Shown here piece by piece: positions 25,925-27,212 of a stretch of DNA of 32,000 nt (its first letter is position 1; every line of letters begins with the position of its first letter). Location: positions 10,898 to 42,897 of the forward strand of contig JBFMCR010000004.1 in NCBI GenBank assembly GCA_040754425.1, read 5' to 3'. Source of the DNA: Pseudomonadota bacterium. GTDB lineage: Bacteria > Pseudomonadota > Gammaproteobacteria > Burkholderiales > Thiobacillaceae. A program made the position numbers and the translations under genes. The notes below the pieces were generated by a model. The model had not been told where the DNA came from, ran no database searches, and saw nothing but the letters and a program-made list of their open reading frames with translations.

Positions 25925-26361
25925 ACAGGGAGGTAAGGGAGGGAATGGAGGAAAGCCTTCGTTATCTGGGCGAACAAATCATCGGTGCCGCGATGCGGGT
26001 GCATACGGCTCTTGGCCCCGGCATGCTGGAGAGTGCATACGAAGTCTGTCTGCACCATGAATTATCCAAATCCGGACTGCGTGTGGCACGTCAAGTCGAT
26101 TTGCCCATCGAATACGACGGGTTGAAAATGGATTCCGGCTATCGGCTTGATCTGGTAGTGGATGACTGTGTGGTGCTTGAATTGAAGGCAGTGGATAAGC
26201 TCACTCCCCTGCATACAGCTCAGTTGATAAGCTATTTAAGGCTTGGGCAGTACCCTGTTGGATATTTGCTCAACTTCAACGTCGTTCACATGAGGGATGG
26301 TATTCGGCGAATCTTGAACAAGCATTTGAATTAACCTCCCGCGCCTCCCATTCCTCCCTGT
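25925..26361 (+). mobile_element. 437-bp inverted-repeat-bounded cassette carrying the GxxExxY gene (family B copy 3, cargo-bearing)
   Basis: Arms ACAGGGAGGTAAGGGAGGGAATGGAGG (25925-25951) and CCTCCCGCGCCTCCCATTCCTCCCTGT (26335-26361) are 21/27 complementary. The ORF start and stop codons lie inside the arms. GC is lower than in the flanks. The same arm types occur without cargo at 15755-15834 and 16581-16660. Mobility is inferred, not shown. Confidence 0.45.
25945..26334 (+). CDS. GxxExxY protein (PD-(D/E)XK nuclease-like, PDDEXK_3 type)
   Basis: 129 aa with a GMLESAY motif near the N-terminus and D...ELK ([16 protein letters not shown]) as in PD-(D/E)XK folds. A/T-ending codons (TTA, AAA, TAT, ATT) are unlike the neighbouring trp genes. 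Confidence 0.85.
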
Positions 26362-26372
26362 TAATAAGAGTT

Positions 26373-27212
26373 ATGTCCGACATTCTCAATAAAATCCTCG
26401 CCACCAAGCGCGAGGAGATCGAAGCCGGCCTGAAAGAGGTCTCGCTTGCAAAAATGCAGGCGCTTGCCAAGGCGCAGCCGCCTGCGCGCGATTTCGTCGG
26501 CGCCATTCGCGCCAAAATCGCCGCCGGCAAGCCGGCCGTCATCGCCGAAATCAAGAAGGCCAGCCCCAGCAAAGGCGTACTGCGTGAGGATTTTCGGCCG
26601 GCCGAAATCGCCAAGAGCTACGAGGCGGGCGGTGCTGCCTGTTTGTCAGTGCTCACTGATAAACAATATTTCCAGGGCAGCGCCGAATACCTCCAGCAGG
26701 CGCGCGCAGCCTGTTCGCTGCCGGTGCTGCGCAAAGACTTCATCATCGACCCCTACCAGGTCTATGAAGCCCGTGCCATGGGCGCGGACTGCATCCTGTT
26801 AATCGTGGCGGCGTTTTCGCTCCCCTCTCCCCAGGGGAGAGGGGCTGGGGGTGAGGGCGCGGTGTTTGATATCCCCACCATGCGCGCACTTGAAGCCCTG
26901 GCTTTCGAGCTGGGCATGGCCGTGCTGGTGGAGTCCCACAACGCCGAAGAACTCGACGCCGCGCTACAGTTGAAAACCCCGCTGCAGGGCATCAACAACC
27001 GCAACTTGCGTACCTTTGAGGTCAGCCTCGATATCACGCTGGGACTTTTGCCCAAAATTGGTGCCAATCGCATTGTCATTACCGAGTCGGGCATTCTTGC
27101 ACCGGCCGATGTGGCTCGCATGCGCGCCCATGACGTCCAGGCCTTTCTGGTCGGTGAGGCTTTTATGCGCGCCGACAACCCTGGAGAAGCGCTAACGTGG
27201 CTTTTCGCCTAA
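26373..27212 (+). CDS. trpC: Indole-3-glycerol-phosphate synthase (with an 18-aa in-frame insertion)
   Basis: 279 aa with [38 protein letters not shown] and ESGI motifs. The extra segment [18 protein letters not shown] is absent from E. coli TrpC at the aligned position. Confidence 0.92.
26814..26867. repeat. GC-rich palindromic (REP-like) repeat inserted in frame within trpC
   Basis: CCCCTCTCCCC-a-GGGGAGAGGGG is a perfect 11-bp stem (26822-26844), followed by GCTGGGGGTGAGGG. It is flanked by the imperfect direct repeat GCGGCGTTT (26808-26816) / GCGGTGTTT (26859-26867). The length is 54 nt, i.e. 18 codons. Confidence 0.65.

Follow-up and report, generated by a model that had tools for sequence, protein, structure and literature searches.

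The stretch of DNA analysed here (the window) is 32,000 nucleotides long and comes from a Thiobacillaceae genome, hereafter G000, whose assembly has 2.53 Mb, 63% G+C and a completeness of 99.97% (GCA_040754425.1, contig JBFMCR010000004.1, positions 10,898–42,897). The features of its trpC locus are collected in Table 1. The Pfam IGPS match to TrpC is split in two stretches, the best of which covers residues 5–149 and stops where a short insert begins. From 26814 to 26867 the gene reads TTT TCG CTC CCC TCT CCC CAG GGG AGA GGG GCT GGG GGT GAG GGC GCG GTG TTT, which is F148–F165. An in-frame insertion of 18 residues had been described at this place by a previous sequence-only reading, and the sequence is as described there; its size, measured against the orthologues and 6y88, is 17 residues or 51 nt. 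The net gain over the closest orthologues without an insert (262–263 aa) is 17 residues, a 17-residue gap falls precisely at the insert in the phmmer alignment to the solved IGPS of Pseudomonas aeruginosa (6y88), and the Leu of alleles without an insert has its counterpart in one of the two bordering Phe codons. The 11-bp stem reported earlier is indeed perfect (CCCCTCTCCCC-a-GGGGAGAGGGG) and occurred in none of 100 shuffles of the window. The GCG in the right copy of the direct repeat may be part of the repeat's own end, because GAGGGCGCG occurs in the copy in alaS as well.

Table 1. Features of the trpC locus, with positions counted from the first nucleotide of the window.
Feature	Position	Strand	Description
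PD-(D/E)XK gene between trpD and trpC	25945..26334	+	129 aa; Pfam PDDEXK_3 E 2.1e-42
trpC (indole-3-glycerol-phosphate synthase, IGPS)	26373..27212	+	279 aa; from the ORF list; Pfam IGPS E 2.9e-90; sole copy in the genome
Direct repeat, left copy GCGGCGTTT	26808..26816	+	A-A-F; 8/9 match to the right copy
Net in-frame insertion (site S1)	26817..26867	+	51 nt, aa 149-165; between beta4 (aa 140-144) and alpha4 (aa 167-179)
C-rich arm CCCCTCTCCCC	26822..26832	+	Half of the perfect inverted repeat
First G-rich arm GGGGAGAGGGG	26834..26844	+	Pairs with the C arm
Second G-rich block GGGGGTGAGGG	26847..26857	+	Mirror copy of the first G arm; read from the sequence
Direct repeat, right copy GCGGTGTTT	26859..26867	+	A-V-F; 8/9 match to the left copy
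Second hot spot (site S2)	27063..27068 (27065/27066)	+	A231/N232, alpha6-beta7 turn; empty in this genome

The BoxC, PIT or TMECO repeats have been known since the 1990s and have been described as intergenic, and to our knowledge their origin, partner and function are all lacking. The motif was formulated as CCCTCNCCC-N3-6-GGGNGAGGG-N3-GGGNGAGGG and named TMECO, the older names being BoxC and PIT elements, and 3610 copies were tallied in 262 proteobacterial genomes (Holder et al., 2015; PMC4666352). Earlier work by Bergler, by Bachellier, and by Hoyne and Maher is cited in that paper. For Escherichia coli, the motif is given there as "always located intergenically", and no association with transposons, phages or plasmids was found (PMC4666352). 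The trpC copy contains the 9-nt C stem CCCTCNCCC, a loop within 3–6 nt and the first G stem GGGNGAGGG (CCCTCTCCC-CAG-GGGAGAGGG, 26823–26843). The mirror stem GGGTGAGGG is also present, and the second loop departs from the strict 3 nt, being GCTGG (5 nt), or CT (2 nt) if the stems are counted as 11 nt. Four strict matches to the TMECO pattern were found in the genome, none of them the trpC copy, and 16 matches, this copy included, were obtained when the second loop was set to 1–6 nt. The second G-rich block, GGGGGTGAGGG, is the third strand in the published triplex motif. By its letters, then, the trpC insert is a variant of the BoxC/PIT/TMECO motif with a predicted triplex; the triplex of the E. 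coli motif was studied by CD or NMR on the oligonucleotide (PMC4666352).

About 27 copies, in which a C arm and its complementary G arm are followed by another G block, were counted genome-wide, a lower bound (the repeat scan overlooked a degenerate remnant in bioA). The siblings that the sequence-only reading had proposed to look for were thus obtained, by a loose blastn-short search and scans for the G block; the strict palindrome search matched the trpC copy alone. One subfamily, with the second G block GGGGAGAGGG, has conserved longer flanks (left aagcgtttcc..cgtc, right aacggacacggcgg) at C1:46489, C2:14341, C8:70119, C14:53160, C14:163035, C26:48595 and C37:30851 of G000, and probably represents an intergenic element of greater length. 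Arrays of G-rich heptamers in tandem, (GGGGTCA)n and (GGGATCA)n, are also spread across G000, often by gene ends (e.g., C7:134269–134333, C10:23432–23539, and C15:117692–117742), and units of the form GTGAAGGGGGAAGGG(T/G)GAAGGGGGAAGGG are dispersed in the same genome, with GTGAAGGGGGAAGGG at C6:20826, C12:92028 and C32:71976.

The insert had earlier been taken for a REP-like element. Two Y1_Tnp genes, at C37:85544–85867 (L176) and C2:6750–7070 (L177), are present in the genome, and each of these RAYT-like genes is bordered by several inverted copies of its own 20–25-nt repeat (GTAAATGGGGTCAGACACGATT; AGGGTCAGGTCTTGCAATAA). A hairpin of the triplex type, with C arm and G arm, was absent from the flanks of both. 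The REP identity of the trpC repeat was therefore rejected in favour of the BoxC/PIT/TMECO class, and a RAYT enzyme was likewise rejected as the partner of the triplex-type repeat, the repeats around both genes being the wrong ones. The two loci resemble classic REP/RAYT layouts in themselves, and the GGGGTCAG core is reminiscent of the (GGGGTCA)n arrays.

The survival of such a repeat in frame had been considered rare, which does not hold in this genome, as about half of all copies lie inside genes. Six-frame reading combined with Pfam placed at least 13 copies in frame within real genes: one each in trpC, alaS, fmt, hypF, the V-type ATPase B gene and an ELM1-like gene, two in cmr2/cas10, one in each of two RAMP genes, one in the linker of sucB and two in ybeY. 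A Pfam domain runs across the copy in alaS, fmt, hypF, V-ATPase B, the ELM1-like gene and one RAMP gene; in alaS, for example, the tRNA-synt_2c domain (9–565) encloses the copy at 515–526. The copies of ybeY, sucB, cmr2 and the second RAMP gene lie within the protein, between or beside Pfam domains. Ten of the 13 run C-G-G when read along the gene. In this orientation a TGA occurs in one of the three frames, and therefore only the open frames are seen. The type III CRISPR set (Cmr2/Cas10 and two RAMP genes, C24:3700–12100) holds four to five in-frame copies in about 9 kb, one of which is reverse-oriented. The alaS copy, which adds 12 aa, is present solely in G000 and its nearest relative G007 and is missing in 13 other relatives; because of this restriction, it is taken as a fairly recent gain. 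Since no cassette of the kind described below is known at the alaS site, solo copies may insert unaided.

The TrpC proteins of 34 relatives, labelled Thiobacillus or Hydrogenophilaceae, were compared, and site S1 was readable in 33 of them (G012 is masked at the site). No insert is present at the site in 22 of these, including the six closest congeners with 85–87% identity to this TrpC; G002, G003, G004, G009, G010 and G013 are among the empty alleles. The site is likewise empty in 30/33 other betaproteobacterial TrpC, in 41/117 database homologues and in all solved IGPS. The remaining 11 readable relatives are occupied, by inserts of +13 residues (G015 and G026), +14 (G023), +17 (G024), +31 (G001), +37 (G014), +46 (G006), +55 (G011), +59 (G008) and +200 (G005). 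Solo repeats are found in G000, G024 and G015, multiple copies in G001, G006 and G011, decayed copies in G023 and G026 and a full nuclease cassette in G005. The G024 allele, from another genus, carries almost the same 17 codons as this genome, and the inserts of G008 and G014 consist of another triplex-type repeat, CCCCCCTTGATAAAGGGGGGTTGGGGGG, translated as PPLIKGGGG. The alignment of orthologues suggested by the sequence-only reading thus agrees with an insert that is not ancestral, while lineage specificity was not borne out, the same codon being occupied in many relatives and in some of them by a cassette. At site S2, the second hot spot, seven relatives (G006, G008, G014, G016, G017, G023, and G024) have +9 to +62 residues made up of the same repeat peptides.

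Occupancy of S1 is strictly linked to its flanks. In the 117 parsed TrpC homologues, all 76 occupied alleles have AAF at the left junction and all 41 empty alleles have AAL, and every right junction has Phe or Tyr, mostly followed by Asp. No extended co-conversion tract around S1 was seen in 60-nt windows, and the linkage is limited to a few junction codons. Three readings may account for it. The linkage may go back to a single founding insertion, whose junction later passed from one trpC backbone to another, either through recombination or through homing in which the co-converted tract is very short. It may reflect a target requirement of the nuclease. It may also reflect a structural need for two aromatics at the base of the loop, since within the insert DSSP assigns strand or bridge to residues 149–150 and 164–165 alone in the structural model. 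A single origin of the occupied alleles was not supported on insert-masked trpC trees, which are weakly resolved. The protein tree requires seven changes of site state, at least two of them forced. In the nucleotide tree, all five members of a supported clade are occupied, and a clade with 100/100 support mixes the occupied G015 and G024 with the empty G017 and G018. The occupied alleles do not form one clade, and therefore several events or recombination are needed.

The +200 insert of G005 contains a DUF559 domain in frame with trpC (Pfam E 2.5e-41). Its DNA runs in the order Phe codon, hairpin, forward repeat, DUF559, reverse repeat, hairpin, forward repeat, Phe codon, and the left junction frame F-x-L-P-S-P-x-G-R-G is common to G000 and G005. 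A database search with the G005 protein retrieved 17 clusters with the architecture IGPS-DUF559-IGPS (462–514 aa), all with the cassette at S1, some on contigs of up to 739 kb and with differing trpC backbones; the DNA layout was read for G005 only. Of 21 DUF559 loci in relatives, 11 have a forward repeat 46–108 nt upstream and a reverse repeat at most 35 nt downstream. There are two repeat types, each accompanying its own type of DUF559, and the trpC inserts of G008 and G014 match the type of their genomes. A cassette also lies in frame in recG of G015 (recG of G000 is uninterrupted), in a large open frame of G011 that is DNA-methyltransferase-like by eye, and at the end of a further G011 frame that is tadA-like by eye. 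In bioA, G007 has a full cassette, and a 25-residue in-frame remnant, PFPSPSNPLPGGESGRRPGEGTSTG, is found at the same site in this genome (C16, just upstream of 68896), where it matches the right-hand part of the G007 cassette. The bioA gene thus reads as a direct example of a nuclease-less remnant beside the full cassette of the nearest relative.

The DUF559 domains resident in trpC group together (support 95/98) and separately from those encoded elsewhere in the same genomes, except for three long-branch type-2 sequences within the trpC cluster, which are read as a long-branch artefact. With a dN/dS of 0.09–0.17, similar to that of the TrpC halves and with dS near saturation, the trpC-resident nuclease is conserved as a protein under purifying selection and is not decaying. 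DUF559 of the cassette type is absent from G000, and therefore nothing here can move the trpC copy now. The genome's own DUF559 match (C2:5225–5488) was rejected as a partner, being weak, unrelated and free of hairpins beside it. No publication that connects DUF559 with these repeats came up in a literature search on the domain together with repeats or mobility. Other nuclease genes lie near trpC. The PD-(D/E)XK gene between trpD and trpC (Table 1) has the same place in G005, G006 and G014, is reduced to a fragment in G001 and is missing from G011. Free-standing DUF559 genes with triplex-repeat ends occur just upstream of trpD in G011 (L156, C329:432–749) and G014 (L155, C21:3074–3388), and therefore the trp operon spacers, like trpC itself, collect nuclease cassettes.

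The AlphaFold2 model of TrpC, made with 34 sequences, has a pLDDT of 92.4, falling below 50 at residues 155–160, and its order is beta4 (140–144), a short turn, the insert and alpha4 (167–179). Foldseek superposed it on 6y88_A with TM 0.92/0.97 and an rmsd of 1.0 Å. The invariant catalytic-strand residues E59, K61, K121, E187, N208, E238 and S239 are kept. In the model the inserted loop comes after beta4, on the catalytic face of the barrel; the beta4-alpha4 turn of IGPS is not known as a catalytic loop. The model presents the insert as a low-confidence, disordered Pro/Gly-rich loop on an intact barrel, and TrpC with the insert would be active. The earlier proposal that the frame is preserved and the loop tolerated by the barrel is in line with the open frame and with this model, for which structure prediction had been recommended.

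Taken together, the trpC insert is probably a translated remnant, or a non-autonomous copy, of a cassette that combines DUF559 with triplex-type repeats. In Thiobacillus-like and neighbouring betaproteobacteria, a cassette consisting of a predicted nuclease frame (DUF559, Vsr-like, PD-(D/E)XK) bracketed by inverted copies of the repeat would have settled at the trpC codon. The copy in G000 would have lost the nuclease part or be a non-autonomous derivative. Being free of stops in the frame of trpC and a whole number of codons long, it would be read through as a Pro/Gly-rich disordered loop of 17 residues between beta4 and alpha4 that the TIM barrel tolerates. The family of the repeat, its copy number, the copies within genes, the occupancy series at the site and the place of the loop in the model are observed; from these we infer remnant origin, translation and tolerance. 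The order of events could equally be the other way around, with a solo copy arriving first and serving as landing pad for the cassette.

A further step, which we put forward tentatively, is that the DUF559 frame and its two triplex-type hairpin ends constitute a homing-like selfish element, which would invade conserved genes at one precise codon and survive there translated as an extra domain or loop. The Phe...Phe-Asp flank of occupied trpC alleles would then be the target or a short co-converted tract, the Leu-type empty alleles would be resistant, and solo repeats such as the trpC copy here would be a decay stage of the homing cycle. The site-specific DUF559 clade, its dN/dS of 0.09–0.17 and the perfect linkage of flank and insert bear on homing indirectly. 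If true, this would provide an enzyme partner for the BoxC repeats, orphans for 30 years.

An unlikely alternative to the cassette origin is the independent transposition of a non-autonomous MITE-like repeat into trpC of this lineage, with GCGGCGTTT and GCGGTGTTT as target-site duplication and without a cassette ever at the locus. The 8/9 direct repeat, which the sequence-only reading had interpreted in this way, does exist and encloses exactly 42 nt of repeat; G000 sits among insert-free alleles in the trpC trees; and the recent alaS copy of G000 and G007 is at a site with no known cassette. However, the flanks of the 27 copies are no more alike than shuffled pairs (mean longest shared stretch 3.37 nt against 3.51 nt), so that a target-site duplication was rejected as a trait of the family, and the 8/9 repeat is found at the trpC copy only. 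Moreover, no clean insertion with a duplication is seen at the alaS junction, terminal inverted repeats are missing beyond the hairpin itself, and the junction position, frame and Phe flanks of the trpC copy are identical to those of cassette-bearing alleles.

It is very unlikely that the segment is not selfish DNA but is retained because it is itself functional, either as a loop of TrpC or as a hairpin, triplex or G-quadruplex tuning trpC expression. As RNA, the insert forms a stable hairpin (folding energy −38.1 kcal/mol, z −2.46), its four G tracts on the sense strand of trpC also match the G-quadruplex pattern, and the site is occupied in many species. Yet the length and sequence of the inserts vary freely (+11 to +200 residues), many close relatives have none, the same repeat lies in a dozen unrelated genes and in spacers, and the loop is disordered in the model. 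In vivo tests in E. coli revealed no promoter, terminator or polymerase effect of the motif (PMC4666352). An Rfam search of the insert gave no meaningful match. There is next to no likelihood that an ancestral TrpC loop resembling the repeat, or an error of the assembly, explains the insert: homologous inserts do occur widely in the family, but the insert is absent from most betaproteobacterial TrpC and all solved structures and about 27 copies of its DNA motif exist in the genome, and the gene lies mid-contig in a 99.97%-complete assembly, with its frame intact and an identical protein in a public protein collection (P0019).

The trpC locus contributes a full series of occupancy states at a single codon, a flank linkage without exception, and the selection and clade evidence for the resident nuclease. 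One codon of this essential-pathway gene shows the full range, empty, solo, stacked, decayed and with nuclease cassette, in close relatives, which makes trpC a compact test bed for how such DNA spreads. The locus ties a BoxC-type repeat to the DUF559 nuclease and shows that proteins can harbour the repeat. It also marks two loops of the much-engineered IGPS barrel as accepting 9 to 200 extra residues.

Several known systems resemble what is described here. The BoxC/PIT/TMECO repeats share the three-block build with near-identical letters (CCCTCTCCC, loop, GGGAGAGGG, loop, GGGTGAGGG), are multi-copy and proteobacterial, and occupy loci that differ among close relatives. In contrast to the E. 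coli copies, which are reported to be intergenic and linked to no mobile element, about half of the copies here lie inside genes, where they would be translated, and DUF559 cassettes of the relatives have the motif as their inverted ends. Where the published pattern has a second loop of 3 nt, the loop here measures 5 nt (2 nt with 11-nt stems). The REP/REPIN-RAYT systems are alike in having short dispersed hairpin repeats and a dedicated single-copy enzyme gene framed by them, whereas the partner suggested here is a PD-(D/E)XK nuclease and not an HUH transposase.

The Rickettsia palindromic elements (RPE; Ogata et al., 2000, summarised in PMC10969869) and the Wolbachia palindromic elements are selfish in-frame repeats in protein genes. 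RPE are about 100–150 bp long and Rickettsia-specific, their extra peptides lie at the surface, and they have no known protein partner. Like RPE, the repeats described here are palindromic, lie in frame in unrelated housekeeping genes and are read as extra peptides with the fold kept, as seen from the at least 13 genic copies with intact Pfam domains and from the intact TrpC model. The likeness is one of behaviour. The repeat here is about 35–47 nt, G/C-rich, has a third mirror block and in relatives has a nuclease gene as partner.

The Vsr-like 'EDxHD' homing endonuclease family is represented by I-Bth0305I (PMC3239194), and DUF559, Vsr and a group I intron homing endonuclease belong to one PD-(D/E)XK family set (PMC3424549). 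Unlike intein- or intron-borne homing endonucleases, the DUF559 cassette has no intron or intein around it: the TrpC::DUF559 proteins show only the Pfam families IGPS, DUF559 and MTES_1575, the frame is open through the cassette, and its ends are triplex-type hairpin repeats. The cassette would therefore remain in the protein. The likeness lies in a predicted Vsr-fold nuclease frame at one precise site of a conserved gene, in empty, full and decayed states of this site among related species, and in a site-specific nuclease lineage that is under purifying selection.
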